From the IMG/VR virus record IMGVR_UViG_3300046463_000164: a stretch of 64,000 nucleotides of DNA, one strand, 5' to 3'. Below the pieces are notes generated by a model that saw nothing but the letters and a program-made list of their open reading frames with translations, did no database searches and was not told the DNA's origin. The position numbers were made by a program, and so were the translations under genes. Source of the DNA: a virus. Positions within the stretch are counted from its first letter, which is position 1; the number at the start of each line of letters is the position of its first letter. Shown piece after piece: positions 4,987-64,000 of this stretch.

Positions 4987-6180
4987 ATGAAGATTGCTGC
5001 AATTTATTGGCCCACATCTTCAGTGGGCGGCATTAACACGTTGTTTGAGTCTCTACGGAAAGCGGCCATTGCCCAGGGTGATGAGTTCGACGTCATCCGT
5101 TGCGGTAATCTGAAAACCATCAAACCCGAGAAGTTTGCTGAACCGAAGTTGATTCGCGGTGGGGATACTTTCATTACGGTTCATGGCGATTCGTCGCATC
5201 ACCCGGATCAGATCCAAGGCACGATCAAGTGGCTTGAAGAAAATTATGACGCGGTGTATTTCGGCTACTTGTGTCCGCACGAAAACAAGGCGTATGGCAG
5301 CGAGCCGGTATTCATGCCGATGTATACTGATCTGAAACTTCCAAAGGTATCGTGTATTGTTGATGCCTATTGGGATTCGTATGCAGATTGGGCAATTCCC
5401 TGCTTCCCTCATATTAAGCGGACTGTGGTATCGCAAATCGCCTACGCTGAACCGTTGGTGAAGATGGGTATGCCGGTAGAAGCGATCAAGGCTCCCATTA
5501 CTCCGAAGCTGAATATTCAATCCGTTCGCAGCGACGAATCTCTGACGGTCTGGACTTCCCAATGGAAGACGATCAAAGGTATTGACAAGCTGCTTCCTCA
5601 TATTCCGGCAATCTCGGAAGTCTCTAAGGTGGAGTTGTATTCCAATGGGATTCTGTACTATCAGATTCGGGAAGATGAAGAGTGGAAAGCTGCAGTCGGT
5701 AAGGATCACTTTAAGGAGTTCAACGGTTACGGAAAGGCTGAGTTCTTTGGGTATGTTTCAACAGATGAAATCCCGGAGATTCTGACCCGTTCTTGGTTTA
5801 TGATCGACCTTCAAGGTATTGGCAAGCCTAAGCATGAAGCATACCGGAATGGCGCTTACAACTATACGACCATCGAGGCGTTGCTGTATGGGTCTTGTCC
5901 TATCCTGCACGCTCAGGCGCTGAAGTCTATTATCCCCAAGGAATTCTTCTTGACGATTGAGCATCCGAAGGAAATTGCAGAACTGATTCGTACCAGCAAG
6001 GATTTTGCTCTTGATCCGGTCCGTCAGAAGAACGCGCGTGAATGGGTATTGGACATTCACTCGGATTCAGCGACGTATAACGTCATCAAGGAGTCGTTCG
6101 CGCTCCCTGATCCGGTTGTGGATATCTCTGGTTTCTTGAAGAAAGATGAGCCAGCTGATCTTTTCTCTATGTTTGGTTGA
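4987..6180 (+). CDS. GT-B fold glycosyltransferase
   Basis: N-terminal MKIAAIY..VGGINT, KGIDKLL, FFGYVS..EI, NYTTIEALLYGSCPI (GT-B donor-binding Ex7E-like region). Confidence 0.75.
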   Translation: MKIAAIYWPTSSVGGINTLFESLRKAAIAQGDEFDVIRCGNLKTIKPEKFAEPKLIRGGDTFITVHGDSSHHPDQIQGTIKWLEENYDAVYFGYLCPHENKAYGSEPVFMPMYTDLKLPKVSCIVDAYWDSYADWAIPCFPHIKRTVVSQIAYAEPLVKMGMPVEAIKAPITPKLNIQSVRSDESLTVWTSQWKTIKGIDKLLPHIPAISEVSKVELYSNGILYYQIREDEEWKAAVGKDHFKEFNGYGKAEFFGYVSTDEIPEILTRSWFMIDLQGIGKPKHEAYRNGAYNYTTIEALLYGSCPILHAQALKSIIPKEFFLTIEHPKEIAELIRTSKDFALDPVRQKNAREWVLDIHSDSATYNVIKESFALPDPVVDISGFLKKDEPADLFSMFG

Positions 6181-6191
6181 GGTTGCTAAGT

Positions 6192-6791
6192 ATGAGTGTG
6201 AATAAGAAGGTTGTAGTTCTAGTTGAACCCCACGCGGATGACATCTATCTCAGTTGTCATCAACATGCTGTAGATTGGGTGAAGGAAGGAAAGGTTGTAG
6301 TGATCGTCACCGTCTTTTCGGGAACCCGGAAACGGGCGCGCGACGGCACCAGCTACGCAGATGCAATCGGTGCTACCTGGATCGGCTTAGGGTTTGATGA
6401 GTTCGCTGAGCCTGATATCCGCAATGCGTATTTGAACACGCCGTTTGATCCCCTGCCGGGTAATCTCAGCCTGATCTATGAGGCTAGTGAGGTTCAGGTA
6501 GTTTCCCCGCTAGGTATCCAGAACCCCGATCACCAGGCTGTTCGTGAGTGGCTAAAGGCTTCTAATGACCAGTTGCGCTATTATGCGGAGATTCCGTATT
6601 ATACGAAGCTGAAGAATCAAGAAGAAGTCAACGGACTGATTGTTGGCAAGGTGATTGATAGTATCAAGAAGCCTAAGCACACAAAGGCTGACGAGAAGTA
6701 TTGGAAGTGTTTTAAGGATCAAGCGAAGTTTTTCCACTTTAACCCGCCGGAATCTTACAAGGATGTCCCGGAACTTTTGGTGACAGATTAA
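6192..6791 (+). CDS. PIG-L/LmbE family N-deacetylase
   Basis: EPHADD and NPDH metal-binding motifs; YYAEIPY. Confidence 0.8.
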   Translation: MSVNKKVVVLVEPHADDIYLSCHQHAVDWVKEGKVVVIVTVFSGTRKRARDGTSYADAIGATWIGLGFDEFAEPDIRNAYLNTPFDPLPGNLSLIYEASEVQVVSPLGIQNPDHQAVREWLKASNDQLRYYAEIPYYTKLKNQEEVNGLIVGKVIDSIKKPKHTKADEKYWKCFKDQAKFFHFNPPESYKDVPELLVTD

Positions 6792-7444
6792 TGGCTGTAG
6801 TCAAGCATATACATATCATCGGAGCAGGCGGTCATGCCAATGTGGTGTTGGATATTGTTGAAGAGTTGAGGAAATATGTAGGAATCAACATCTATGCCGA
6901 TTCCTATGATCCCGTAGCCAACAATAGATTTTGGGACTATCCTATCAAGGGATCGGCCACTGACTTCTTTTCAGAAGTCAAATACAACTGGAATCATGAC
7001 TATATTGTGGCCATCGGAGACAACTCCGCTCGCGGTAGGTTGTCGGAGAGTTTCAAGTTGGCGACTAAGCGTAAGCCCGTCACCCTCATCCATCCTAAAG
7101 CTATAGTGAGCGATAGGGCCAAGATTGGCCACGGCACGGTGATTATGGCAGGAGCAGTTGTTGGTCCTGGGGCTGTCATTGGCGATAATTGTATTATCAA
7201 TCACGGAGCAACGGTTGATCATGATTGTATGCTTGAAGATGCAGTTCATATCTGTCCTGGAGCGCATATTGCTGGTGCAGTCAAGGTCGGAAAGGGCGTT
7301 CAGGTCGGCATCGGTGCCAGTGTTATACAAGGCATAAGTATTGGTGAATATACCACCATCGGTGCCGGAGCAGCAGTTGTAAGTGATATCGCCGGTTGGG
7401 TAACAGCGGTCGGAGTCCCGGCCAAGGTAATTAAGGAATATTGA
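6791..7444 (+). CDS. UDP-4-amino-sugar N-acetyltransferase (Campylobacter PglD / NeuD family)
   Basis: IIGAGGHA, VAIGDN..R, hexapeptide left-handed beta-helix repeats, VDHDC, GVPAKVIK. Confidence 0.92.
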   Translation: MAVVKHIHIIGAGGHANVVLDIVEELRKYVGINIYADSYDPVANNRFWDYPIKGSATDFFSEVKYNWNHDYIVAIGDNSARGRLSESFKLATKRKPVTLIHPKAIVSDRAKIGHGTVIMAGAVVGPGAVIGDNCIINHGATVDHDCMLEDAVHICPGAHIAGAVKVGKGVQVGIGASVIQGISIGEYTTIGAGAAVVSDIAGWVTAVGVPAKVIKEY

Positions 7445-7445
7445 A

Positions 7446-8630
7446 ATGTTGAATGCAGGTATTAGTCCGTGGCCGTTTTATGCTCAAGATGAACGTGATG
7501 CGGTTCAGAACATATTGATTTCAGGCAAGGTGAATCAGTGGACGGGCACGGAAGTCAAGGAATTTGAGAAAGAGTTCGCAGAGTATATTGGGACATCATA
7601 TGCAGTAGCGGTATCAAACGGCACGGTGGCGTTGGATCTGATTCTCCAATATTGTTTGTTGGGTGCCATCGATGCAGAAGTTATTGTGACGTCCCGGACT
7701 TTTATTGCATCGGCTAGTTCCATTATCATGGCGGGAGCAAAGCCGGTATTTGTGGACGTTGATCCGAAGTCTGGCAATATCACTCCTGAAGCAATTCGAG
7801 CAGCGGTCACGGAGAATACTGTAGCAATCATCTGTGTTCACTTGGCTGGTTGGCCTTGTGATATGGACCCGATCATGGAGATTGCAGCTGATAATGGACT
7901 GTATGTAATCGAAGATTGTGCACAGGCTCATGGCGCGATCTATAAGGGTCGCAAGGTCGGTTCCATCGGTCACGCGTCTGCTTGGTCTTTCTGTCAAGAC
8001 AAGATCATGTCGACAGGCGGTGAAGGTGGTATGATCACAACCAACACGTCATTCATTTGGACCTATTGTTGGTCCAAGAAGGATCACGGCAAGAGTTATT
8101 TTGACGCCGTGATGCGTAAGGATCATGCTCCTGGTTTCCGTTGGTTGCATAGTAGTATCGGGTCGAATTACCGTATGACCGAAATTCAAGCCTCAATCGG
8201 TCGTATTCAGCTACGCAAGCTGGAAAGTTGGGTCAGCACCCGCAATTATATTGCGGACGAGTTGAATAAGGTGGCTTGGCCGCTTTCTGCTGTTCGTATT
8301 GAATGGTGCGACTTCCCCGATAGTCGCCATGCTAAGTACAAGCATTATATGTATGTAAATCCTGAAGGTCTCAATGAAGGTTGGGATCGGGAAAGAATAA
8401 TCAAGGAATTGATTGCCGAAGGAGTTCCCTGCTACCACGGTTCTTGTTCAGAAGTTTATCTGGAAAATGCGTTTGACGGACATTACAAAACTCTGCCGGT
8501 AGCAAAGGAGTTGGGTGAGACTAGCCTGATGTTCTTGGTTCATCCGACCATTAACATGATGGAAGTCCACAATATGACTGAAGGACTTCGCAAGGTGCTC
8601 ACAGCCGCTTCAAAATCTTGTAGAGAATGA
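7446..8630 (+). CDS. DegT/DnrJ PLP aminotransferase (Neisseria PglC / Campylobacter PglE type)
   Basis: SPWP..KVNQWTG.E.KEFEKEFA, EDCAQAHGA, WSFCQDKIMSTGGEGGM. Confidence 0.93.
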   Translation: MLNAGISPWPFYAQDERDAVQNILISGKVNQWTGTEVKEFEKEFAEYIGTSYAVAVSNGTVALDLILQYCLLGAIDAEVIVTSRTFIASASSIIMAGAKPVFVDVDPKSGNITPEAIRAAVTENTVAIICVHLAGWPCDMDPIMEIAADNGLYVIEDCAQAHGAIYKGRKVGSIGHASAWSFCQDKIMSTGGEGGMITTNTSFIWTYCWSKKDHGKSYFDAVMRKDHAPGFRWLHSSIGSNYRMTEIQASIGRIQLRKLESWVSTRNYIADELNKVAWPLSAVRIEWCDFPDSRHAKYKHYMYVNPEGLNEGWDRERIIKELIAEGVPCYHGSCSEVYLENAFDGHYKTLPVAKELGETSLMFLVHPTINMMEVHNMTEGLRKVLTAASKSCRE

Positions 8631-9748
8631 CGGATATAAGAATTAAGGACACTCCCAGCAATATTGCTGATATATTGATGGGACGTGATCCCGTTGAACC
8701 CGATGCAAAACTAATCCAAGAAAATATCAAAGACAAAGCAGTGTTGGTGACTGGCGCAGGTGGTTCCATCGGGTCAGAGATTTGTCGTCAAGTCGCCAAC
8801 CAAGGTCCGAGTGTATTGGTATTGTATGAGTTGAACGAGTTTGCTCTCTATACAATCCACGTCGAGCTAATGCGAACTCACCCGCACGTTAAGGTCATCC
8901 CCGCTTTGGGCTCGATCTTGAATTGTTCGCGGGTGTCGTATTTCCTCAGCAAGTTTAACATCAATACCATTTATCATGCGGCGGCGTATAAGCATGTTCC
9001 AATGGTAGAGTATAATATCACTGAGGGCGTATATAACAACTTTATTGGAACTGCTGCCTTGGTTACAACAGCAGACGGCAATGTAGATACTTTTGTGCTT
9101 GTGTCTACTGATAAGGCGGTTAGACCGACTAATGTGATGGGGGCAACTAAGCGTTTGTCTGAGATGTATGTTCAGGCCGTGCAGGAACGTCGTCATCGGA
9201 CTAAGACAACGTTCTCAATGGTTAGGTTCGGGAATGTTCTTGGGTCCTCAGGATCAGTGATTCCGTTGTTTCTAGAGCAGATTGCAAGGGGAGAACCTTT
9301 GACGGTCACCCATCCTGATATCACACGCTACTTCATGTCGATTCCTGAGGCTGCTCAGTTGGTTATTCAGGCAGGAGCAATGGCAACTGGCGGTGAAGTA
9401 TTCGTCCTGGATATGGGTGAGTCTGTGAAGATTGTAGATATGGCCAAGCGTTTGCTTCAACACTACAATCTACCTGAAAATCATTATGAGATCACTGGGT
9501 TGCGTCCCGGCGAGAAGCTGTATGAAGAGTTGTTGATTGGTGATTCGGTCGGAAACACATACCATCCTAGGATTATGAAAGCGAATGAATTTCATCCTTC
9601 ATATTCCCGTATGCTCGACATTTACGATATAATAGAAGAATGCTACCATAGTATGGATTTCAAGAGACTGTTTAACGTGCTAGAGCACAATGTTTCTGGA
9701 TTCAATCATTCCGGCGAGATAAAGGATCATTTGTATGAGCATAATTAA
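8627..9748 (+). CDS. UDP-GlcNAc 4,6-dehydratase (PglF/CapD family), soluble catalytic domain only
   Basis: TGAGGSIGSE, HAAAYKHVP, STDKAVRPTNVMGATKR, RFGNVLGSSGSV, GLRPGEKLYEEL; no N-terminal transmembrane region. Confidence 0.93.
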   Translation: MTDIRIKDTPSNIADILMGRDPVEPDAKLIQENIKDKAVLVTGAGGSIGSEICRQVANQGPSVLVLYELNEFALYTIHVELMRTHPHVKVIPALGSILNCSRVSYFLSKFNINTIYHAAAYKHVPMVEYNITEGVYNNFIGTAALVTTADGNVDTFVLVSTDKAVRPTNVMGATKRLSEMYVQAVQERRHRTKTTFSMVRFGNVLGSSGSVIPLFLEQIARGEPLTVTHPDITRYFMSIPEAAQLVIQAGAMATGGEVFVLDMGESVKIVDMAKRLLQHYNLPENHYEITGLRPGEKLYEELLIGDSVGNTYHPRIMKANEFHPSYSRMLDIYDIIEECYHSMDFKRLFNVLEHNVSGFNHSGEIKDHLYEHN

Positions 9749-10199
9749 GGCGGTAGACCGCGCCTACAAAACGATGAAAGAGCGTAATTGGAACACCATC
9801 TATTGGGCGGTGGACCTACACGGCGTGTGTCTGAAGTCGAATTATCAGCAAGGTGGATACAGTTGGATCAATATCCACGCGCGTCGAGTATTGAAGCTCA
9901 TCAGCCGACTTCCTGAAACTAAGATCATCTTGTGGTCGTCGGTGTATGATTTGGAGAAGGGAGATATCATCGACTTCTTTGAAGAACATGGTATTCATGT
10001 TTCAGACTTCAACAGCAATCTGAGCGAGGGCAATACTCACGTTTCTGATTTCTCGCAGAAGTTTTATTTCAGCGTCCTGTTGGACGACAAAGCGGGTTTC
10101 GATCCTGAAACCGATTGGTTGGCAATTGAAAACTATCTTTATGATAAAGGAATATTAAATGCAAACGAAGGAAAAGCCGGTAGTACATTACATTGGTGA
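9735..10199 (+). CDS. HAD-superfamily-like protein
   Basis: IYWAVDLHGV, ILWSS, K.YFSVLLDDKAG. Confidence 0.6.
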   Translation: MSIIKAVDRAYKTMKERNWNTIYWAVDLHGVCLKSNYQQGGYSWINIHARRVLKLISRLPETKIILWSSVYDLEKGDIIDFFEEHGIHVSDFNSNLSEGNTHVSDFSQKFYFSVLLDDKAGFDPETDWLAIENYLYDKGILNANEGKAGSTLHW

Positions 10200-18166: not shown

Positions 18167-18177
18167 TTATTTTCTCC

Positions 18178-27835: not shown

Positions 27836-28030
27836 TTAGCGGCTCAGCACGTGCTGGCAATACATCCATGAATGATCTTGGCGACACTCGTGCCAGATGT
27901 CGATGTCGTAGCTGATGCTGAGGTAGACTATGGTGAATGTTGCTAGCAACACCAAACCCACAGCCAGCCACCCAATAAGTTTGTCCATCAACGAACGCTT
28001 ACGTTTAACTTGTCTCATCATTTGCTCCAC
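27836..28030 (-). CDS. Small membrane protein
   Basis: One TM helix. Confidence 0.5.
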   Translation of the reverse strand: MEQMMRQVKRKRSLMDKLIGWLAVGLVLLATFTIVYLSISYDIDIWHECRQDHSWMYCQHVLSR

Positions 28031-32572: not shown

Positions 32573-32797
32573 TTACAAAAGTTTGTTGATACGATTAAAC
32601 AACTTGTTAGCATACTTCGTTTCGCCGTCACGAACGCCTTCATCATAAGCATTCATTACGCCATCTTGGAGATTTTCGTAAGGCGTGGGTTCATGATCTG
32701 GCCACGCGTCACTAATTACGTCCCTCAATAGACCCGTCAGTTCAACCGACAGGCCTAAAGAGCAGAGTTGAGCTTCTACTTCAGGCCGAATCCTCAC
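32573..32797 (-). CDS. Hypothetical protein
   Basis: ORF overlapping the DUF475 stop. Confidence 0.5.
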   Translation of the reverse strand: MRIRPEVEAQLCSLGLSVELTGLLRDVISDAWPDHEPTPYENLQDGVMNAYDEGVRDGETKYANKLFNRINKLL

Positions 32798-33822
32798 GCA
32801 GTTACTGCCTTTGCTTCAGCCTTATTGGCAATCAGAGAATGTACCACAGCGATGCCGAGAATGATTGCAGCCGACAACCCCGATACAACTTCAGGAATAT
32901 CGACAACCGTACCAGCGAACATCATAGCCGTCAATACACCAATCGACCAGAACGCGCCGTGTTCGAGATATGGCAGACCGCCAAGCGTGTCCTTTTCAAC
33001 CATATGAATGGTCATCGAGCGAACGAACATCGAACCGATACCAAGACCCAGACCGATCAGGATGATGCTATTCGATACCGCAAATGCGCCAACCACACCG
33101 TCGAACGAGAAAGTTGCATCCAATACATTTAGGTAGATGAACATACCCAGACCGGACTTTGCTGCAGTCGATACACCCGCCCCACCACCAAGCTTTTCGC
33201 CAAGATATTGAACCGCAAGCCAGGATGCTGTGCCGGCAGAGGAAGCAACCGCGAACTCAAATCCTTGGTCGACCGGAATAACAAGATACTGGACAACGAC
33301 TTCAATAATGCCAGCCAACAGAACGATACCCCAATTACCAAAACCGCTCAACTTACTCAGAAGCGTTTCGATGCCTGGAATCCAATGTTGCTCCTTTTCT
33401 TCATCCATCATAAAGGCCAGGAATACCATCAGCAAGAAAGAACCGCCAAAGCCAGCAATCTTCACATGAGCCACGCTAACCGTCGCTGCATATAATTGAG
33501 CATTCTCGAATGGGAGTGTCGCAGATTGCACTAGCGATAGAGAACTTGTACCCCATACAATCAGGATCGGGAACAGTACCCGAACGAAGAACACCGAGAA
33601 CACCATCCCCCAAGTCAAGAAGCGATGTCGCCAGGTATGATCCAGGTCTTTGAGAACTTTGGCGTTGACTACCGCATTGTCCAGAGACACCGAGGTTTCG
33701 AGAACCCCCAGAATTGCCGCAAGGAAAGCCCCTTGCAAGCCTGCGACTGCGTAACAGATCAGGATCGCAACAACCGTAAAGATGAAACTTCCAGTGTAAT
33801 ACTTCTTCAAAGTCGGAAACAT
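32794..33822 (-). CDS. TerC-like DUF475 integral membrane protein
   Basis: LETSVSLDNAVVNA, FLTWG, DATFSFDGVVGAFA, GLGIG.MFVRSMT, YLEHGAFW; ATG at 33822. Confidence 0.9.
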   Translation of the reverse strand: MFPTLKKYYTGSFIFTVVAILICYAVAGLQGAFLAAILGVLETSVSLDNAVVNAKVLKDLDHTWRHRFLTWGMVFSVFFVRVLFPILIVWGTSSLSLVQSATLPFENAQLYAATVSVAHVKIAGFGGSFLLMVFLAFMMDEEKEQHWIPGIETLLSKLSGFGNWGIVLLAGIIEVVVQYLVIPVDQGFEFAVASSAGTASWLAVQYLGEKLGGGAGVSTAAKSGLGMFIYLNVLDATFSFDGVVGAFAVSNSIILIGLGLGIGSMFVRSMTIHMVEKDTLGGLPYLEHGAFWSIGVLTAMMFAGTVVDIPEVVSGLSAAIILGIAVVHSLIANKAEAKAVTA

Positions 33823-33911
33823 TAGGTACAACTCCTACATAAAAGGATGATGAATATAAAGAGGGCAACAACCGTACCGAGGTCCATTGCCACCGCAAAC
33901 AGAGAGTCCAC
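33822..33911 (-). CDS. Possible 21-29 aa membrane micropeptide
   Basis: MDSLFAVAMDLGTVVALFIFIILLCRSCT; stop overlaps DUF475 ATG (TAATG). Confidence 0.4.
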   Translation of the reverse strand: MDSLFAVAMDLGTVVALFIFIILLCRSCT

Positions 33912-41822: not shown

Positions 41823-42908
41823 TTACACCTCTACGTCAAACTTACGGAAACTCGACTCATAGATCGAACGGGAAAGCTCAGCAGACAGTCCGGTGAGGTC
41901 TATCGCCGTAGTTAGTACGGTTCCCCGCTTAGAAGCGATGTAGTGAGCTACTAGCTGTGCGTACAGCCACAAAAGATTACCTTCCAGAGGCACGTTGAAG
42001 TTAATAAACAGATGACCCAGGTTATGGATCATTGTGCCTAGAACAAAGTCAGGTTCATCAGTTGTAATGCCTTCCGTCAGCATCGCTACAATAGCACTGA
42101 AGAAACTCTTCCAATGAAGAATATCAGGACCGATGATCGGCATATGATTTTCTTCAGTTGATGTCAGATAATTGCTTTTGTTCGCAATCGCCGCATCAGC
42201 CTGCTCCCTGGAAAAGTCGTACAGGTGAGCATTGGTGACGTGCCAACGATACGGACCAAGTTTCAAACCTGGGTAGTTCTTCTTGATCTCGTTGAACATC
42301 AACTCATGCAGGAATGAGAATTCGAACGGATTGATAGAACCGGTACCAAAGATGATATCGCCTGAGCGCTGGATGACCTTGGTGCAGAACTTATCTTCGC
42401 CTTCAACATAGAAGTTGATACCCAGGTTGCAAGGTCGATCCTTACCTAGTTCCCCATAACCAAAACGGTCTTCAATCGCTTCAGTCGAATCCTTATGGAT
42501 ATCGTGAATCGATACAAACGCGCGGCGAGTGTAGAGACTATCACGGCGGAATAGATCAGGCATAGATACAATCTGACGTTGGTCATAGAAACGCGGACCA
42601 TAAGCGCCAGACCAAGTCACACCGTCATCTGAATACTGGGGCGCGCGTGGCAGGAAGAAGGACAGATAAGGGTTCACACGATCATCGCCCGCCATAACCC
42701 AAAAGGTTTCAGCGATCAAAGCGAAGATATTAGATTTGCGACCTGCGAGAGAAAGGTGACGCGAGCGGGGATTTGTTACTTCAAAGGTTGTATCGAAAAT
42801 TGAAGTGCAACCGCCGTTACGGGATGGCCGATAATGGCCTTCATGGATGATTTTGTTGAAACCTGCGAGTACTACACTTGAAACGCTACTACCAGAAACC
42901 AAATGCAT
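41823..42908 (-). CDS. Thymidylate-synthase-fold dUMP hydroxymethylase
   Basis: SRNG, AETFW, YSDDG..W.GAYGPR, RR, KD.PCN catalytic Cys, QRSGDIIFG..INPFEF, HLY. Confidence 0.75.
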   Translation of the reverse strand: MHLVSGSSVSSVVLAGFNKIIHEGHYRPSRNGGCTSIFDTTFEVTNPRSRHLSLAGRKSNIFALIAETFWVMAGDDRVNPYLSFFLPRAPQYSDDGVTWSGAYGPRFYDQRQIVSMPDLFRRDSLYTRRAFVSIHDIHKDSTEAIEDRFGYGELGKDRPCNLGINFYVEGEDKFCTKVIQRSGDIIFGTGSINPFEFSFLHELMFNEIKKNYPGLKLGPYRWHVTNAHLYDFSREQADAAIANKSNYLTSTEENHMPIIGPDILHWKSFFSAIVAMLTEGITTDEPDFVLGTMIHNLGHLFINFNVPLEGNLLWLYAQLVAHYIASKRGTVLTTAIDLTGLSAELSRSIYESSFRKFDVEV

Positions 42909-57413: not shown

Positions 57414-58403
57414 TTAACCGAAGTTAAACCCGGAGTTACGGATCATCGTAGCCTCTGCGATATCCTGCCAGCCTTGGGCATCGCCCTTCATAAAGGCCGA
57501 CAACTTCAAGATCGTACGCAGGGACAACTCGCGCAGGTTCTCGTAGTTATCCTCCAACCACTCCATCATCAGACCCTTCTGCACGCCGTCGATGCCGTGC
57601 ACGTCGAGCATCGTCGTGTGGTTAACGACTTGCTTGATGCGAGTCAGAATTTCCTTGTTCGTGTGGATGCCCAGATCCAAGTAGATCGAGCGGCTGATCA
57701 GAGCCTTGAAGTGCTCCGCCAGGTTAGTCCCGCGCTCCATCATCCGGTCAAAGTCCAGGTTGGTGATGAACACGCAAGCGCCTTCGAAGTCGAACGCTTG
57801 GTCAACTCCCTGCTCCGCCAGCCATTCGCTAGCAGTGAGCCAAACCAGGTGACGGACATCGCCGGTATCCAACGCGCCCTTCAGCAGGTTGAGGCTGGTC
57901 TCGTCCTGGAAGATCACGTCGATGTCGTCCAAGACAAGGATATCGCCCTTATTACGGTGCTCGAACAACTGGGCGAACAACGCGATGGCCGAGATTTTCC
58001 CTTTCAAGATCGTGAACTGATTGATCTCTTGGTTATCGATAGCCTGGTTCAACCGCTTCTCCAGGTTATAAGACTTCCCGATACCGGCCGCACCGGAGAT
58101 AATCAGCGAGCGGACATCGCCGCCCACGATCATATCCGTCAGTTGCGACATGATATCGAAACGGCGGCTGATCAGCGCGTCCAACTTATCTTCGGGACTG
58201 ACGGAAACTGCGGTGCTCGTGTCCTCCACGATCTTGTAATCGGCACGGTTGACGTGCACGTTGACTTCTTTTCCGTTCCGGATGATACGCAAGTACATCT
58301 CACGCTTGCAACTCGCATCGCCGTCTTTGGTCGAAACGAGCGGGAAGTTGCCGTGCAGGTTCTTACCGTAGTGTAGGCCGTCTTTGATGTTTACGATTTG
58401 CAT
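57414..58403 (-). CDS. AAA-type P-loop ATPase
   Basis: Walker A GAAGIGKS, Walker B ILVLDDID, LKGALD, FITN, ALISRS. Confidence 0.85.
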   Translation of the reverse strand: MQIVNIKDGLHYGKNLHGNFPLVSTKDGDASCKREMYLRIIRNGKEVNVHVNRADYKIVEDTSTAVSVSPEDKLDALISRRFDIMSQLTDMIVGGDVRSLIISGAAGIGKSYNLEKRLNQAIDNQEINQFTILKGKISAIALFAQLFEHRNKGDILVLDDIDVIFQDETSLNLLKGALDTGDVRHLVWLTASEWLAEQGVDQAFDFEGACVFITNLDFDRMMERGTNLAEHFKALISRSIYLDLGIHTNKEILTRIKQVVNHTTMLDVHGIDGVQKGLMMEWLEDNYENLRELSLRTILKLSAFMKGDAQGWQDIAEATMIRNSGFNFG

Positions 58404-58467
58404 ATTCTTACTCCAGTTGGGATTGTTATTAAATCGCTTTCTTTTGTTCCGCGATTCGATAACAGAG

Positions 58468-58495
58468 AGTTTACGCCGTTCTAGCGGGAAGTAAA
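58468..58495 (-). promoter_or_regulatory. Early promoter
   Basis: TTTACT-N16-TAAACT. Confidence 0.5.
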
Positions 58496-58658
58496 GACTT
58501 TCATATAATAACCTTACATAATGTATGGTATTCTTGACGGCGCGTTTAGAGGCTCAGGGTGAGGTCGTGTCCGCTAGGGTTAACTATCCTAGCGGGGAGC
58601 TAAACGAAGCCCGCTAGAAAGCTAAAAACCCCTGCAGATCGCTCTACAGGGGTTTAGG

Positions 58659-59249
58659 TTAGGTAGATTCTGCTTCGGTTTCTTCGGTATCGGGTTCAAC
58701 CGCTTGTTGCCGAGCCTCTTGGAGTTGCTCTCTAATAAATTTAATCGTTTTCAAAGCCGTGATAGGCTCGATTAATTCCGCGTGGCCGTTCTTCTCTAAC
58801 TTGGAGTTTTCGCGGTTTAGATACCCTTGGAACCTTACTTCTGGAGAGGCGTTCCGAAAGGTATGAACTAGTCTATTAGCGTAAGCCCTAGTCACGTCCT
58901 CAGCGGTCTTACAATCGGGGTTTCGCTTTAGAATCCCCATCAAAACCTTATCCGCCTGAGCGCTTCGCGCGACTCCGATTATATTCAAGAATTTCTTGAT
59001 GAATAAGCCTTGGTATTGAAGCCCTATCATCGTTTCCAGGCGGTCCACGTACCTTTGCACCAACGCGTCGATGTCAAGCGTAGGATAGCGCTGCTGTACC
59101 AAGTAGCGCTCATATACGGGCGGTGGGATATCCTTGTGTCTAGCCTTCATATGCAAGCGGAAGTCGGCCAGGGTTTTCGGCTTACCTTTCTTACTTTCCT
59201 CGCAATAAGGACAATCGAATTTGGCGCCTTTTCTATTTTCATACTGCAT
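58659..59249 (-). CDS. C2H2 zinc-finger-like protein
   Basis: F.CPYC...F..HMKARH. Confidence 0.6.
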   Translation of the reverse strand: MQYENRKGAKFDCPYCEESKKGKPKTLADFRLHMKARHKDIPPPVYERYLVQQRYPTLDIDALVQRYVDRLETMIGLQYQGLFIKKFLNIIGVARSAQADKVLMGILKRNPDCKTAEDVTRAYANRLVHTFRNASPEVRFQGYLNRENSKLEKNGHAELIEPITALKTIKFIREQLQEARQQAVEPDTEETEAEST

Positions 59250-59302
59250 AATTTGTATTTCCGTCTATCGGGGTTAGTCCTAATAGAAAAATTTAGAACG
59301 AC

Positions 59303-59334
59303 AAAAGCCCCTGCTAGAATCTAGCAGGGGCTTT
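59303..59334. terminator. Terminator
   Basis: AAAAGCCCCTGCTAGA-A-TCTAGCAGGGGCTTT. Confidence 0.8.
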
Positions 59335-59364
59335 GCATTTAACCCCTTTCGGGGTTTAGAAGCC

Positions 59365-60306
59365 TTACGCGGGCTTCTTGTTTGCGACGCGCTTCGTGAC
59401 GTTCGCTGCGCCGAGATTCGGCACCTGAGCGCGTTGCTCTTTCGTGACCTTCGGTGCCTTGGAGGCGTCCGCAGCCGCCGCAGCCTGAACCTTCGGTGCC
59501 TTCGGTTCTTTGGGAGCCTTCGGTGCCGGAGCAGCCTTGATCAGAATTTCTTCCGGGGCGTAGCGACGACCCGTACCAATTTCTGCCAGGTAGTAGTGCA
59601 GAACGCCTTCTTTCTTCTCCGAAGCCAAGAAGTAGCCCTTGGCCTTCGGTTCCCAGTGCAGGATACCCGACAAACCACCGGCGGACCACGTGAACTCGTC
59701 CATCATCTGCTTCTTGGTCAGGCCTGCCGGATCGCACAAGCGGACAAACAAGCGGTGCAGCATCGAGTCTTGCTTGATCGGTTGCGGCGTCTGCGGAAGA
59801 ACCTTGGTCCAGTCGGTTCCACGGAACGTCTGCTTGCCCGTAGCAGGATCGATCTTGCCGGTGAAGTTCGTGCCCGCCACCTTGGCCATCTTGCTGTCTG
59901 CCGTCGGCATCGCGTTTTCGACTTCAGCCGCAAGCTTCAGTTGCTCCGGCGTCAGCGTCTTGGCCGCAGCCTGCGCCGCTTCTTGGTTCATCTGAGCGAT
60001 GTTCACCGGTTGCGACGGTGCGTCGTCGGTCTTGGCTTCTTGATCGGCGCCGGCCAGTTCTTCTTTGGCCGTTTCGATTGCCTTGCCCGCTTCGGTATCT
60101 GCCGGACCTTCCACTTGAATCATTTGGAAGCCGCCAGCGGTTTCCTTCTTGCCGGTCATCAGTTGACCCAGCGAGGTAGAACCAAGCGTCAGGCCAGCCG
60201 CCTTGATTTCATCGAGAATCGCGGCATTCTTCTTGCCTTCGACCATCACTTGGAAGTCGCCGTCGATTTGCTTGAGGACGCGGATCAGGGTGTTGTTTGC
60301 GGTCAT
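59365..60306 (-). CDS. Putative nucleoid-associated protein: DUF3489-like winged helix plus K/A/P-rich tail
   Basis: PAGLTKKQMMDEFTWSAGGLSGILHW..KAKGY.L.SEK; KAPKEPKAPK tail; start at MTANN. Confidence 0.6.
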   Translation of the reverse strand: MTANNTLIRVLKQIDGDFQVMVEGKKNAAILDEIKAAGLTLGSTSLGQLMTGKKETAGGFQMIQVEGPADTEAGKAIETAKEELAGADQEAKTDDAPSQPVNIAQMNQEAAQAAAKTLTPEQLKLAAEVENAMPTADSKMAKVAGTNFTGKIDPATGKQTFRGTDWTKVLPQTPQPIKQDSMLHRLFVRLCDPAGLTKKQMMDEFTWSAGGLSGILHWEPKAKGYFLASEKKEGVLHYYLAEIGTGRRYAPEEILIKAAPAPKAPKEPKAPKVQAAAAADASKAPKVTKEQRAQVPNLGAANVTKRVANKKPA

Positions 60307-60392
60307 GATAAAGCTCCAAATTAGGGATAGGTTTGTTTCGTTAGGTCTTACGCTTCTGATTCCGGTTAGTTTTCTTACCAACCTTAGAATCT

Positions 60393-60421
60393 ATTCTACT
60401 TTGAATCTTTCGGAAAGTCTA
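60393..60421 (-). promoter_or_regulatory. Early promoter
   Basis: TAGACT-N17-TAGAAT. Confidence 0.65.
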
Positions 60422-60492
60422 GCGATTTTTCATTTATTTCACTTCGCTTTCCGCTTATTCCGCTTCGTCTTTAAGGCGTCGCGTTAGATAGA

Positions 60493-60521
60493 ACTATAGA
60501 CCAAACAGACCTGCGAGTAAA
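60493..60521 (-). promoter_or_regulatory. Second tandem early promoter
   Basis: TTTACT-N17-TATAGT. Confidence 0.65.
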
Positions 60522-60726
60522 GCCTTATTTTGACTATTTTTACTAGGACAAACCCTACCATCTACACGTTTTCGGGCTTCTATATAGGCTATCGAAACGG
60601 GGTAAAAGCCAGTAAATCCGCGCTAATCGGGCGTATAGGCTCATAGTGAGATTCAACCTGACGGGGTATGTCTTAGCCTAGACTATGTAAGCGCAGCCCG
60701 CTAGAGGCTCATCTAACGATCAAAGG

Positions 60727-60882
60727 TTTTCGCTATCGGTTTTTGTTTCTGATAGAAAATTGAAAGTCATTCAGGAATTGGTGGCTTAGTCGATCAACCC
60801 AGTGCTACCGATGACTCTATCATACTATGGAGTATGGATAAAAGTAAAGCCCCTTTCGGGGCTTTTTGGTAGGGTTAAACCC
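60727..60882 (-). repeat. Copy 1 of ~155-bp terminator-promoter-hairpin cassette
   Basis: Imperfect direct repeat of 63167-63320; shared AGTAAAGCCCCTTTCGGGGCTTTTTGGTAGGG. Confidence 0.85.
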
Positions 60883-61299
60883 TTAGAACGTTACGTGTGG
60901 CGTAACCAACTCGCAAAGCGCTTCCCACCGGCGAATAAGCGCCTGAAGAATATCCGTTTCGATACCGCGAATAACGCGCGGGCCGTTCCAACGAAGCGCT
61001 ACCTCTTCACCTTCGTTTTCCAAAACCGCGTTATAACGCGCGTTCCTTTCGTCCGAAGAAACGATTTCATCCCAATCGCCCATATTATATTGGCCGAAGT
61101 GGTACTCATTATACCTTTCGCCGTGATCGTAATAGCAACGGATTACGAGCGAATAGCTTTCGTTTTCTCCGCCAATCGGAACTTCAACGTGAAGGGCGTA
61201 GTGCTCCCGATCAACTACGTCGCGGGCTTCGGAGATATTAACCAAAGCCTTACGATGCGTAAGTTGCGGGTCCAACACGGTAATATCTCGAATTCTCAT
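60883..61299 (-). CDS. Early hypothetical protein
   Basis: GGAG RBS, own promoter. Confidence 0.65.
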   Translation of the reverse strand: MRIRDITVLDPQLTHRKALVNISEARDVVDREHYALHVEVPIGGENESYSLVIRCYYDHGERYNEYHFGQYNMGDWDEIVSSDERNARYNAVLENEGEEVALRWNGPRVIRGIETDILQALIRRWEALCELVTPHVTF

Positions 61300-61380
61300 T
61301 TTGCTACTCCGTTTCGTTAGGGTAGTTCTATTATAGCGGATTCGACAAGAAAGTCTATTGGAATCCGCTAGGTAGAAACC

Positions 61381-61632
61381 CTAGTAGCCGAATTCGCAAA
61401 CAGCGGTTGCGAGCGCCAGCGCGTTTTCGTAAATCGAAAGGTCGCCAACGCCGTAAGCCGTAAGCGCTTCGGGTTCCGGACAATTTTGAAGATCGAACGC
61501 CGCCGTGCTAGGGTTATCGTTTTCGAACGCCGCCCAACCCGCTTCGGAGATATACCCCTCAACATCTAAAGCCTGCATGAAAGCCGGGGCTTTCTTGAAA
61601 AGTTCCCAATATTGTTCGGAAGAAAGTTGCAC
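61381..61632 (-). CDS. Early hypothetical protein
   Basis: AGGAG RBS, GTG start. Confidence 0.55.
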   Translation of the reverse strand: MQLSSEQYWELFKKAPAFMQALDVEGYISEAGWAAFENDNPSTAAFDLQNCPEPEALTAYGVGDLSIYENALALATAVCEFGY

Positions 61633-61633
61633 T

Positions 61634-61963
61634 TCAAACTCCTGGCATTAAGGTAATAATTCCCGAACGGTTGACGGGCGTTCCTTCTACGTCCGATCCC
61701 CGATTGAAATGAATTCCGCCGAAAACGAACGCGATTTTGAGAACGTCGTTTTCGTAAGAAACGAATTCAAAATCCATATCGTCCCAACTAGACCAATTAC
61801 TGACGCGGGTTCCGATAAAATCCGTTACGAAAACGGTAAGTTGGGAAAGATCGAAAGAATTGTTATAAAGGCTGACCGCGACCCGTTGAAGATCGGTATC
61901 AATTTCCTTATCCTTCCAACCGGACGAAAGCCGGTTAGAGTCTACTTTAACTTGAACTTTCAC
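61634..61963 (-). CDS. Early hypothetical protein
   Basis: GGAG RBS, own promoter. Confidence 0.6.
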   Translation of the reverse strand: MKVQVKVDSNRLSSGWKDKEIDTDLQRVAVSLYNNSFDLSQLTVFVTDFIGTRVSNWSSWDDMDFEFVSYENDVLKIAFVFGGIHFNRGSDVEGTPVNRSGIITLMPGV

Positions 61964-61970
61964 TTCCTAC

Positions 61971-62037
61971 TCCGTTTCGTTTCGATACAAAGAATTATAC
62001 TTGAATCCTAGCGAAAACAAAATTAATTCTTTCTATC
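61971..62037 (-). repeat. Copy 1 of ~67-bp promoter-leader cassette
   Basis: Imperfect repeat of 63559-63624 (TATAAT then TATCGAAACGAA.CGGAG leader). Confidence 0.75.
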
Positions 62038-62152
62038 GCTTTTCGCGTTACCCCTAAGAAAAGCTATCAGAGGGACGTAAAAAGAGGGTGCGGATTTGGA
62101 GGAGAAGCGCCGCACCCCTAGAAAATACCTTGCCCAGTCGGCCAGCCTAGCC

Positions 62153-62506
62153 TTAAAGCAAGGTATGAGATTTGATAGTAACCCAACGCCCGCCTTCGCG
62201 GTAAGTTTGGATATTAATGGTGGAACCGGCCGGCAGAGCTTCCAAATGCTGGATAAAGCGCTCCCCGCCCGTTTTCCACTGCTCGTTGGCTAAAGACTCC
62301 GCGACGAGACACCCGGTCCGGTTTTCAGTACCGGGCCAAATAATCTCGCCGTTCGCTACAATCCGGTCACCCTCACAACGGGCCCAATAAACGGACTCCC
62401 GTAAAACGCGGGCGTTGTACGCCTCTTTCATTTTGTTTTCCGGCAAACGGCCTGAATACAAAACTTGAATAACTGGCTCCTTGGCCGTACTAGCAATCGA
62501 CAGCAT
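62153..62506 (-). CDS. Early hypothetical protein
   Basis: GGAG RBS. Confidence 0.6.
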   Translation of the reverse strand: MLSIASTAKEPVIQVLYSGRLPENKMKEAYNARVLRESVYWARCEGDRIVANGEIIWPGTENRTGCLVAESLANEQWKTGGERFIQHLEALPAGSTINIQTYREGGRWVTIKSHTLL

Positions 62507-62650
62507 TTCTCTTACTCCAAAAATCGGGTTGGGATGATGCGAGGGACTGGCTGGTATCGTTTAAGGAACGGGACACCAGAACTAACTCTAACGGGCTTTA
62601 CCGGAAAAGTCTACCGGATAAATTAAAAAGCCCGTAGGGGTTAGACCTGA

Positions 62651-62914
62651 TTAGATAAAGCTACTCACTAACCTTTCGGTTTGGAAAGCTTCAACCGATT
62701 CGAACGGCCCAACGTAGTCGTTGGAGACTTCCCAGCGACCTTCAAAATCCGTTTGAAAATCGACGGCGTAAAACTCGCCGGAGTCTTTAAAGAGAATCGC
62801 GTACCAATCGTAAGCCGAACGGGTAGCCACCGCGGTTTCCAGCGGTTTAGCAAAACCGTAATCTTCGTAAGCCTTGACGATATTAGCGGGGATCAAAATC
62901 CCATTAATCTTCAC
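62651..62914 (-). CDS. Early hypothetical protein
   Basis: GAGG RBS, GTG start. Confidence 0.6.
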   Translation of the reverse strand: MKINGILIPANIVKAYEDYGFAKPLETAVATRSAYDWYAILFKDSGEFYAVDFQTDFEGRWEVSNDYVGPFESVEAFQTERLVSSFI

Positions 62915-63166
62915 TTTGAACCTCTCGTTTAGTTTCGATATAGGGATTCTACCGTAACTATACAGAAAAGCTACTATGGATTTTATATCAAAATTACAGA
63001 TTCCATATAGTTTGGTAATATAGACTCTAGACCGTTATCTGCTTAAGCCCCGTTTCTCTAGGGTATTTCCGCTAGTAGCGCGTTAGATGAGCCGCTATGA
63101 GGTTTTGGTATAGGTCGTTGGGTATAATATAGGGATTAATTCAAGCCCGTTATACGCTCATCGAGC

Positions 63167-63320
63167 TTTTCTCTATCAGAATTGATTACTGATAGAAAAT
63201 CCCATAATTGACGGGGTCTGGTGCCTTAGTCGATCTGCCCAATGCAACCGATAAGTCAATTATACCCTCTTTTGGAAAAAAGTAAAGCCCCTTTCGGGGC
63301 TTTTTGGTAGGGATAAACCC
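63167..63320 (-). repeat. Copy 2 of terminator-promoter-hairpin cassette
   Basis: Imperfect direct repeat of 60727-60882. Confidence 0.85.
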
Positions 63321-63321
63321 T

Positions 63322-63549
63322 TTATTCCGGTTCGATTACTTCCGAACGGAAAGCGAAGGCAACGAGTTCTTCGCCGTCCTTATTCGAAAGGTAGCACTCA
63401 ACGCGGTTATCCGTTCGCGTAATCCGCGCCGTTACCCCTTCGGGTAGATTACCGTATTGCCGCTGCATCTCGCTTACGGCTTGATCTGCGGTCCGAAAGA
63501 CGAGATTATACCCCGCGTTACAATCGTCATAGCAAAATACGGTATTCAT
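63322..63549 (-). CDS. Early hypothetical protein
   Basis: GGAG RBS, own promoter. Confidence 0.6.
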   Translation of the reverse strand: MNTVFCYDDCNAGYNLVFRTADQAVSEMQRQYGNLPEGVTARITRTDNRVECYLSNKDGEELVAFAFRSEVIEPE

Positions 63550-63558
63550 TTTTCGTTC

Positions 63559-63624
63559 TCCGCTTCGTTTCGATAAAGGAATTATACCGGAAACCTAGAG
63601 AAAACAAAATTGTAATTTTCTATC
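63559..63624 (-). repeat. Copy 2 of promoter-leader cassette
   Basis: Imperfect repeat of 61971-62037. Confidence 0.75.
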
Positions 63625-63666
63625 AAGAATTGTTTCCAATAGATTTTGACTATCACGCAGACAAAT

Positions 63667-63688
63667 AAAAAGCCCCGAAAGGGGCTTT
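63667..63688 (-). terminator. Terminator
   Basis: AAAGCCCC-TTTC-GGGGCTTTTT on the minus strand. Confidence 0.8.
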
Positions 63689-63690
63689 AC

Positions 63691-63996
63691 TTACTCCGCG
63701 ATTTCCGCGTTATCTACCGTATAACGCGAGAAAACTATCCAACGACCACGGTTCCGGTCGATATTACGAAACGTGTGAATTTCTACTTTCGCGCCGTCGA
63801 TTAGTAGCGCGTCTAGTTTCTTTTCGAATCGAGCGCCGCTTTTCTCGTATTTCTCCCGGATAAGGGTCCACTGAAAATCGTGAAGACCCGAACGGTTCCC
63901 TAGACCCATCCAAACGTTCTTACCGTCGATAACGATTCTATCGCCTTCGTTTTTCGCGTAATCGATAATAACCCGCTTAAGTTGAGCCGCTTTCAT
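63691..63996 (-). CDS. Early hypothetical protein
   Basis: 101-aa ORF ending at a terminator; upstream context cut by the window edge. Confidence 0.55.
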   Translation of the reverse strand: MKAAQLKRVIIDYAKNEGDRIVIDGKNVWMGLGNRSGLHDFQWTLIREKYEKSGARFEKKLDALLIDGAKVEIHTFRNIDRNRGRWIVFSRYTVDNAEIAE

Positions 63997-64000
63997 TTTT

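Follow-up and report, generated by a model that had tools for sequence, protein, structure and literature searches.

Organization of the right end of the window

The stretch analysed here (the window) comprises 64,000 nucleotides of IMG/VR virus record IMGVR_UViG_3300046463_000164, which belongs to a PhiW-14-like T4-superfamily myovirus. Its right end, positions 60883-64000, carries seven small early genes on the minus strand. The features of this region, with those that provide its context, are as follows (CA+TG counts are observed against expected).

60307..60882 (no strand): long intergenic module at the downstream edge of the purged block, with promoter-like and terminator-like sites and three sequence blocks (repeats D2, D5 and D7) repeated at 62915-63321; CA O/E 0.64 and TG 0.52 over 60382-60882
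60883..61299 (-): early gene, 138 aa, no family match, moderately purged (28 against 52.8); orthologue in the NODE_43 phage, a relative, at 52% identity
61381..61632 (-): early gene, 83 aa, GTG start after GGAG (19 against 33.7)
61634..61963 (-): early gene, 109 aa (20 against 41.8)
62153..62506 (-): early gene, 117 aa, paralogue of 63691-63996 by alignment and the least purged gene of the stretch (34 against 45)
62651..62914 (-): early gene, 87 aa (16 against 28.3), with a homologue in the relative G001 at 45% identity
62915..63321 (no strand): second long intergenic module, with the same three repeated blocks, a CTATCAG...CTGATAG box and TTTACT-16-TATAAT; CA 0.52 and TG 0.61
63322..63549 (-): early gene, 75 aa (12 against 28.9)
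63669..63688 (-): terminator hairpin AAAGCCCC-GGGGCTTT, with identical copies at 63284-63303 and 60846-60865, one after each cassette
63691..63996 (-): early gene, 101 aa, the most purged gene in the window (11 against 36; CG 39), belonging to a small family found in related phages
58659..59249 (-): 196-aa gene downstream of the block with mild depletion (sense CA 0.61, TG 0.76; NCA 3 of 40)
57414..58403 (-): AAA+ ATPase (phrog_1250) with normal overall CA/TG but NCA in only 2 of 50 NCN codons, the far tail of the gradient
41823..42908 (-): thymidylate-synthase-family protein, a dUMP-hydroxymethylase homologue
4987..10199 (+): operon with a PIG-L-type deacetylase, PglD-type acetyltransferase, DegT aminotransferase and PglF-type dehydratase, behind a 397-aa protein with no family match

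None of the seven early proteins matched a Pfam or PHROG family, no tRNA or Rfam family was found in the window, and neither 58000-64000 nor 15971-19395 had a DNA match in the phage collection searched. A conserved promoter, ribosome-site and terminator cassette lies before and after each gene, and the region is a block of small early genes with host-type promoters. A fold of the two repeated intergenic leaders gave only a weak shared hairpin.

Depletion of the TG/CA step

The first-pass annotation had described strong avoidance of TG/CA with an excess of CG in these genes, and this observation is confirmed. Its hand counts were reproduced exactly: 63691-64000 has CA 6, TG 5 and CG 39, 63322-63549 has CA 8 and TG 4 (12 together), and the control line 7561-7620 has 8. 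Over 60883-64000, CA O/E is 0.53, TG 0.49 and CG 1.66 at a G+C of 0.467, the same G+C as the whole window, where the values are 1.02, 0.99 and 1.10, respectively. To exclude a composition effect, whose appearance under amino-acid and G+C controls had been named in advance as grounds for dropping the idea, we resampled synonymous codons from the window's own codon usage while keeping the protein sequences. This gave 266.5±10.5 CA+TG for the seven genes against 140 observed (z = -12.1), and 144±8 CG against 233 observed (z = +11.3). Shuffling each gene's own synonymous codons still gave 203.7±7.1 CA+TG (z = -9), indicating that codon order also avoids the step, whereas fourteen small genes elsewhere in the window gave z between -1.3 and +1.3. 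The depletion thus survives these controls, and a G+C or amino-acid artefact is rejected. GCA, TCA, ACA, GTG and CTG codons are avoided and NCG codons are raised.

The purge operates at the DNA level and affects coding and intergenic DNA (0.53/0.53 for CA/TG in the intergenic DNA of the stretch) and all three codon positions. The eight CA/TG-containing trinucleotide pairs are the eight most depleted of all 32. Avoidance of antisense promoters or start codons was considered and rejected, because CAA/TTG, which would carry the -35 core and a start codon, is the least depleted of these contexts, while CAG/CTG is among the most depleted. Avoidance of an ordinary restriction motif, an alternative raised beforehand, is likewise rejected, as is general palindrome avoidance: every context of the step is hit, while CGCG, CTAG, TCGA, AATT, GAATTC and TTCGAA are plentiful, and only GATC (1.54 per kb in the island against 6.05 in the rest of the window, four-fold down), GTAC and AGCT are somewhat low.

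The sharp onset is at about 60.2-60.3 kb, a milder dip covers 58.4-59.25 kb, and avoidance of NCA codons reaches back to the gene at 57414-58403, so the earlier remark that the effect is graded from about 56 kb is roughly right. The gradient continues to rise beyond the right end of the window. An identical metagenome contig, found with the exact protein of 63322-63549, shows that this stretch is only the shoulder of an island of about 11 kb, with a core at window-equivalent 64.4-70.4 kb. In this core, eight genes (973 codons) hold 32 CA+TG against about 300 expected, with sense CA 0.04, TG 0.13, CG 2.37 and TA 1.30 (raised from 0.73). Met, Cys, Trp, His and Gln each make up only 0.1-0.3% of the codons; the step is removed there almost completely, costing the proteins five amino acids.

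Conservation and strand pattern of the purged block

We next asked whether the block is kept in relatives. G001 (170,684 bp) has its only depleted region at the syntenic place, and NODE_27/NODE_43 and L075 show the same block. In the two of these three diverged relatives for which the head is available, the block begins after a non-coding stretch, and in all three the purge fades downstream. The head from which the purge fades follows a ~1.5 kb non-coding stretch. Orthologues at 35-52% identity are purged in both lineages, while relatives share only 45-57% identity in the few common early proteins. Within one protein family the purge follows position and not family, the values being 0.28 near the core, 0.79 farther away and 0.96 in an unrelated unpurged phage. 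IMG/VR scans with two neighbouring proteins returned only G001, and a metagenome scan with the neighbouring 313-aa protein gave only two short contigs.

At synonymous sites, the NCA share of NCN codons is 0.013-0.039 in all three phages compared, against about 0.19 in the rest of the genome. In G001, however, NTG codons are normal (0.44) and only sense-strand CA (template-strand TG) is purged, whereas sense TG is purged too in the present phage and in NODE_43. Template-strand TG is therefore the common target.

Candidate modification genes

The protein of 41823-42908 matches Pfam Thymidylat_synt (1.3e-9) and phrog_3676 (4e-84) and is 42% identical to PhiW-14 gp230, annotated deoxyuridylate hydroxymethyltransferase. 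This suggests 5-hydroxymethyluracil DNA, although the substrate (dUMP or dCMP) is inferred from that similarity only. A PF18723 (HMUDK_hel) protein is present in G001 (E 1e-63) and in many clade members on contigs of 168-177 kb, but the kinase domain family PF18748, found in ViI and M6, was not found in G001. The PF18723 gene of this very genome lies outside the window and was not examined, a 75%-identical protein lies on a different 13.6-kb contig, and a further protein, P0014, could not be tied to the contig; these observations do not settle whether the phage has a 5-hmdU DNA kinase. No transferase of the aGPT-Pplase/AADT type was detected, as tblastn with PhiW-14 gp37 and gp109 found no homologue in the window, in the sequences L001 and L009 or in whole G001. 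A PF00303 search missed even the homologue of G001 and therefore says nothing about F8, 14-1 or ECML-117. The operon at 4987-10199 may build a sugar for DNA; G001 shares its 397-aa, PIG-L and HAD genes but not the three sugar-pathway genes.

A possible mark-free immediate-early zone

The earlier interpretation, synonymous selection against one dinucleotide in what may be first-injected DNA, where depletion of a bulky thymine mark at TG would ease transcription by host RNA polymerase, is partly supported. Selection at synonymous sites against one step is supported; the link to a thymine mark is consistent with the data but not shown. Our best reading, to which we give a probability of about 0.45, is that the stretch is the downstream shoulder of an immediate-early block of about 20 small genes, each with its own host-type promoter, strong ribosome site and terminator, from which selection keeps out the TG/CA step. 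In this view, the phage would replace thymine by 5-hydroxymethyluracil and then turn those lying in 5'-TG-3' into a bulky hypermodified base, so that a gene without TG on either strand would stay unmarked in virion DNA. The incoming, fully marked chromosome would first have to be read by the unaltered host RNA polymerase, and marks in the template strand, or lesions made there by mark-seeking host enzymes, would slow or stop it. The genes needed first would thus have shed the target of the mark, template-strand TG (sense CA) first and, in this phage, sense TG too, with escape by the single transitions to CG and TA. The purge would cost nothing in restriction cover, because sites that contain TG would simply be absent here and marked elsewhere. 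Our data establish the purge itself, its strength, strand pattern, gradient and conservation, whereas the mark, its TG context in this phage and its effect on transcription are inferences.

Several lines of evidence favour this reading. CG and TA both rise, as expected from selection with escape by either transition, and the purge of only template-strand TG in G001 fits a transcription effect. Published work places thymine hypermodification at TG in M6, ViI, PhiW-14, SH-Ab 15599 and F8/14-1 (PMC6449724, PMC13458397, PMC12191111), enzymatic phosphorylation of 5hmU in a template switches bacterial RNA polymerase transcription off (PMC6457204), and host END nucleases attack T-hypermodified phages early in infection (PMC12191111). 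On the other hand, at least seven TG-modifying or kinase-family-carrying phages show no island: none exists in ViI, M6, PhiW-14, F8 or 14-1, whose marks have been studied, nor in TSW001, Vibrio 1.244.A or Kevin, which carry PF18723, so a TG mark does not by itself call for a purge. Virion DNA chemistry was not measured, and neither the mark nor its context has been mapped in this clade. In addition, replication genes that must also be read before replication are not purged, and TG/CA is retained in the conserved early promoter boxes; if these are marked, the mark cannot simply forbid polymerase binding. That the block is first-injected DNA was not tested, since genome ends and read depth were not examined; a 145.8-kb contig runs through the block, and G001 has no end repeats and a T4-type large terminase.

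Alternative explanations

The strongest alternative, although unlikely in our estimate, is that an unidentified host nuclease, sensor or silencer reads TG/CA on incoming or first-acting DNA, whatever the phage's own marks are. The early block would escape by lacking the step, and the rest of the genome would be protected later by early gene products or by the TG mark itself. The same signature (CA/TG down, CG and TA up) at 6.4-8.4 kb of the unrelated E. coli phage ECML-117, the scarcity of GATC in the island, the gradient from a fixed non-coding boundary, which suits an order-of-entry or order-of-use effect, and the choice of TG for marks by many unrelated phages, which would make sense if TG is what hosts read, are in line with this. 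However, no system that reads a two-base step is known, the strict strand asymmetry in G001 is not expected from a reader of double-stranded DNA, and the terminase of the relative is of the T4 headful type. Moreover, if marking TG protects the rest of the genome, the early block would be protected too unless the mark itself is harmful there, which leads back to the main reading. A bolder form, also unlikely but not excluded, is that this reader is a widespread host system, to which thymine hypermodification aimed at TG would be one answer and the near-total purging of first-acting genes, as here and in ECML-117, a second. In a sub-variant, the few TGs kept in the early promoter boxes would be the only marked bases of the block, acting as a switch that lets early promoters fire only on parental, fully marked DNA.

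The remaining alternatives fare worse. A regional mutation bias, in which modified thymine at TG mispairs or is mis-repaired where parental DNA is heavily transcribed, would explain why the CG excess (2.4-fold in the core) roughly mirrors the loss of TG/CA and would suit the template-strand bias in G001. It is nevertheless improbable, because TA rises as well, which T-to-C changes do not give, TG/CA is kept at fixed positions of the promoter cassettes, conserved proteins have lost five amino acids while remaining recognisable at 35-52% identity, and the rest of the genome has normal synonymous TG/CA. Twelve polymorphisms among four samples, too few to be informative, show no trend (one removes CA and one makes TG). 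Escape of early mRNAs from an endoribonuclease that cuts at CA-containing sites, either a host toxin or a phage shut-off enzyme, could account for the purge of only sense CA in G001 and for ACA being among the most depleted contexts, but is still less likely: all CA contexts are hit, the loss of sense TG in this phage and NODE_43 would need a second nuclease, no known RNase has CA alone as its target, and UA, the other labile step, is enriched. Finally, foreign origin, also raised beforehand, rests on a dinucleotide signature and codon usage that differ sharply from the rest of the window, but is rejected, because G+C equals that of the genome, the position is conserved in diverged relatives whose orthologues are purged too, the gradient is smooth without a sharp edge and the identical terminator hairpin recurs after each cassette through the block.

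Comparison with known systems

Motif avoidance in phages is known for restriction sites, but a regional, near-total purge of a single dinucleotide, strong enough to strip five amino acids from about a thousand codons and kept through deep divergence, is of another order, and our literature searches turned up no description of it. If the link to the mark holds, such voids would reveal the sequence context of an unknown mark, and the set of genes a phage needs first, directly from sequence, and hypermodification would carry a cost for gene expression that phages must engineer around. If it fails, something in bacteria reads a two-base step, which would be a new kind of defence or sensor. The strand-specific form in one relative and the both-strand form here offer a ready-made comparison for experiments.

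The dinucleotide purged here is exactly the context reported for the thymidine marks of the 5-hmdU pathway, but the mark of this clade may involve the amino-sugar operon in the window. Like the T5 first-step-transfer (pre-early) region and the SPO1 host-takeover module, the block consists of about 10 kb of small, individually promoted early genes of unknown function next to a repeat-dense non-coding stretch. Those regions lie in long terminal repeats at fixed ends, a location not assessed here, and T5's region is said to lack some restriction sites, whereas a dinucleotide is avoided here in every context. In animal RNA viruses, a two-base step is removed by synonymous recoding because something reads it (CpG against ZAP, UpA against RNase L; background in PMC8420353), but those cases are genome-wide, act at the RNA level and are far weaker, while the present purge is confined to one block of DNA. 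Base J (glucosyl-hydroxymethyluracil) in kinetoplastids, a bulky sugar on hydroxymethyluracil that halts an RNA polymerase, has the effect that the main reading assumes, but it acts on RNA polymerase II in a eukaryote to end transcription, whereas here the mark would be avoided to allow it. The signature is the same in Wifcevirus ECML-117, with CA/TG about 0.3, CG about 2 and raised TA over a few kb of early-type genes. By comparison, the present block is much larger (about 11 kb against about 2 kb), is graded, sits in a T4-superfamily phage with hydroxymethyluracil pathway genes and has a strictly strand-specific form in one relative.

Depletion of CA and TG in the right-end genes

We first re-examined the dinucleotide counts that had suggested avoidance of TG/CA and an excess of CG in the genes at the right end of the window, and found that the counts of the first-pass annotation are exact. 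The 310 nt at 63691-64000 hold 6 CA, 5 TG and 39 CG, the gene at 63322-63549 holds 12 CA+TG, and the 60-nt control line at 7561-7620 holds 8. Over 60883-64000, the observed/expected ratio (O/E) is 0.53 for CA, 0.49 for TG and 1.66 for CG, compared with 1.02, 0.99 and 1.10 for the whole window at the same G+C (0.467). A finer profile placed the sharp onset at about 60.2 kb, with a mild dip at 58.4-59.25 kb. Codon usage clearly revealed the mechanics of the depletion, as five codons containing the step are avoided whereas NCG codons are roughly doubled.

Share of codons in the stretch and elsewhere
Codon: stretch; elsewhere
GCA: 0.04; 0.21
TCA: 0.02; 0.14
ACA: 0; 0.16
GTG: 0.05; 0.22
CTG: 0.08; 0.24

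The depletion is equally strong at codon boundaries and in intergenic DNA (0.53/0.53), and the eight trinucleotide pairs that contain the step are the eight most depleted of 32. Disappearance of the depletion under amino-acid and G+C controls had been set out in advance as the outcome that would count against selection, and we therefore resampled the codons. With protein sequences held fixed and codons drawn from the usage of the window, the seven genes should hold 266.5±10.5 CA+TG but hold 140 (z = -12.1), and shuffling each gene's own codons gave 203.7±7.1 (z = -9), whereas fourteen control genes gave z within ±1.3. The effect therefore does not vanish after controlling for amino acids and G+C, and the original observation is solid.

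The depletion deepens beyond the window

The 75-aa protein of 63322-63549 is encoded on a 145,808-bp JGI metagenome contig (L001), which is identical to the window over their overlap with one mismatch; positions beyond the window end are given here as window-equivalent coordinates. Continuing rightwards, the depletion deepens. At 64.4-70.4 kb, CA O/E is 0.03-0.38, TG 0.05-0.34 and CG 1.7-2.5, and a 600-nt window there holds 4-22 CA+TG against about 75 expected. Composition returns to normal at about 71.9 kb, after a ~1.7-kb non-coding, repeat-rich stretch. This stretch at the head of the island (L001 1360-3040, window-equivalent about 70.5-72.2 kb) carries three copies of a ~45-nt unit and many CTAT/ATAG boxes, has a ~1.5-kb counterpart at 7224-8718 of sequence L073 in a relative, and is a candidate origin, packaging site or loading site.

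The eight core genes (973 codons) hold 32 CA+TG, although about 300 would be expected even for their own protein sequences, and Met, Cys, Trp, His and Gln each make up only 0.1-0.3% of residues. One 163-aa gene has a single TG, its TTG start codon. In a 168-aa core gene (L001 4823-5329, window-equivalent 68221-68727), all seven TG lie in the first 16 codons and none in the remaining ~150, and several other core genes also keep their few TG/CA just after the start codon. Along the direction of transcription, the per-gene counts rise from 1-7, to 6-16, to 19-34, and reach normal (115 of 118 expected) at the gene ending at 60306. The stretch first noted is thus the fading shoulder of an ~11-kb island, a phenomenon much larger than could be seen from the window alone.

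Of the 134 CA+TG left in the 6-kb core, 99 are intergenic and sit at fixed places in a conserved promoter/operator cassette. Within the window, two ~400-500-nt intergenic modules share three conserved blocks (60715-60835 and 63155-63275, minus strand), in which TTTACT-N16/18-TATAAT/TATGAT is followed by a conserved leader that ends in ...GATCGACTAAG(C/G)CACCA and then by a CTATCAG...CTGATAG inverted repeat. This element may be a small RNA or an operator; only a weak shared hairpin was predicted.

Purged early blocks in relatives

The window encodes rIIA/rIIB, T4-type tail and baseplate proteins, UvsX, a gp41-type helicase and a ligase, together with a thymidylate-synthase-family protein that is 42% identical to the annotated dUMP hydroxymethylase of Delftia phage PhiW-14. 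The gene order parallels that of PhiW-14. The window also holds an amino-sugar operon with a PIG-L-type deacetylase, a PglD-type acetyltransferase, a DegT aminotransferase and a PglF-type dehydratase.

We next examined three relatives. The IMG/VR contig G001 (170,684 bp, rated complete) is collinear with the window, and conserved proteins are mostly about 45-80% identical. Its only region with CA or TG below 0.6 is the syntenic early block at 158.5-166 kb, and there the purge is strand-specific. In the first seven genes, NCA codons are 5 of 218 NCN codons and codon junctions of C followed by A are 0.064, whereas NTG codons (0.44 of Leu+Val) and junctions of T followed by G (0.29) are normal. 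A second relative, NODE_27/NODE_43, from two ENA assemblies of 177 and 123 kb, shows normal DNA, then ~1.5 kb of non-coding DNA, and then a 133-aa gene that has no CA, one TG (its start codon) and none of the five amino acids, followed by a relaxation over ~11 kb. A third relative, L075, shows the shoulder only.

Gene content differs between the lineages, but some core genes are orthologous at 35-52% identity and are purged in both. In a single protein family, CA O/E is 0.28 in the copy near the core and 0.79 in the paralogue farther away, compared with 0.56-0.80 in copies from the early blocks of the relatives and 0.96 in an unrelated phage with no purge. The pressure is therefore local, long-lasting and positional, and is not inherited composition.

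Possible link to thymine modification

Previous studies offer a possible reason for avoiding this step. Restriction-resistant sites of phages M6, ViI and PhiW-14 are reported to share TG or TC, and the M6 kinase to act on TG (PMC6449724). Diaminopropyl-thymine in an Acinetobacter phage sits predominantly at TG (PMC13458397), and Pbunaviruses F8 and 14-1 carry sugar-derived thymines 'in a TG motif', with host END nucleases attacking such phages early in infection (PMC12191111). Moreover, enzymatic phosphorylation of 5hmU in a template switches bacterial RNA polymerase transcription off (PMC6457204). We found that G001 and many clade members carry a PF18723 (HMUDK_hel) protein. In this view, a block without TG would remain unmarked, and the template-strand bias in G001 fits a cost to transcription. 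Late transcription in this group is T4-like, since gp55 and gp33 are present in G001, and by analogy with T4 it would use newly replicated DNA, which would leave the parental marked DNA as the template mainly for the earliest genes.

However, a number of results speak against this link. Phages ViI, M6, PhiW-14 (through its gp72), TSW001, Vibrio phage 1.244.A and Kevin all carry PF18723, and F8 and 14-1 are TG-modified, yet none of these has a purged block. The kinase-domain family PF18748 is present in ViI and M6 but was not found in G001, and no PhiW-14-type transferase homologue was found in the sequences searched. In addition, replication genes are not purged, and the early promoters keep TG. 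Apart from these results, the relative with the weaker, one-strand purge, G001, lacks the amino-sugar pathway: of the genes at 4987-10199 of the window, it keeps the 397-aa protein, the PIG-L deacetylase and the HAD protein, but the PglD-type, DegT and PglF-type genes (6791-9748) are absent.

A further point against the link is that a purged block also exists in E. coli phage ECML-117 (Wifcevirus), whose marks are unknown. This ~2-kb block (positions 6400-8400 of the record, L085) has CA 0.28-0.37, TG 0.33-0.42 and CG 2.0-2.2, whereas Pseudomonas phages F8 and 14-1, which are grouped with Wifcevirus in Lindbergviridae although their records name only the genus, have none. Furthermore, GATC is about four-fold rarer in the purged island (60307-64000 of the window and L001 2700-13100, which covers the whole island; 1.54 per kb) than in the rest of the window (6.05 per kb). 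GTAC, AGCT and ACGT are also below their Markov expectation, while CGCG, CTAG, TCGA and GAATTC are plentiful.

Taken together, our analysis demonstrates synonymous and even non-synonymous selection against TG/CA in the early genes, whereas the tie to a TG-directed thymine mark is inferred by analogy; it is the best available reading, but a tentative one (probability about 0.45). The interpretation proposed in the first-pass annotation is thus supported only in part, and its suggestion that the block may be first-injected DNA is untested. A host reader of TG/CA on first-acting DNA is less likely but stays a serious rival. Regional mutation bias and an RNA-level cause fit less well and are unlikely, and foreign origin is very improbable. 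Our literature searches found no description of such a purge.

Other features of the genome

Two further differences and similarities between the window and G001 emerged from the comparison:
11639-15275, rIIA and rIIB homologues, with no tblastn match anywhere in the otherwise collinear G001
28018-29157 and 32794-33831, TelA-family and TerC/DUF475-family membrane proteins (tellurite-resistance type), both conserved in G001
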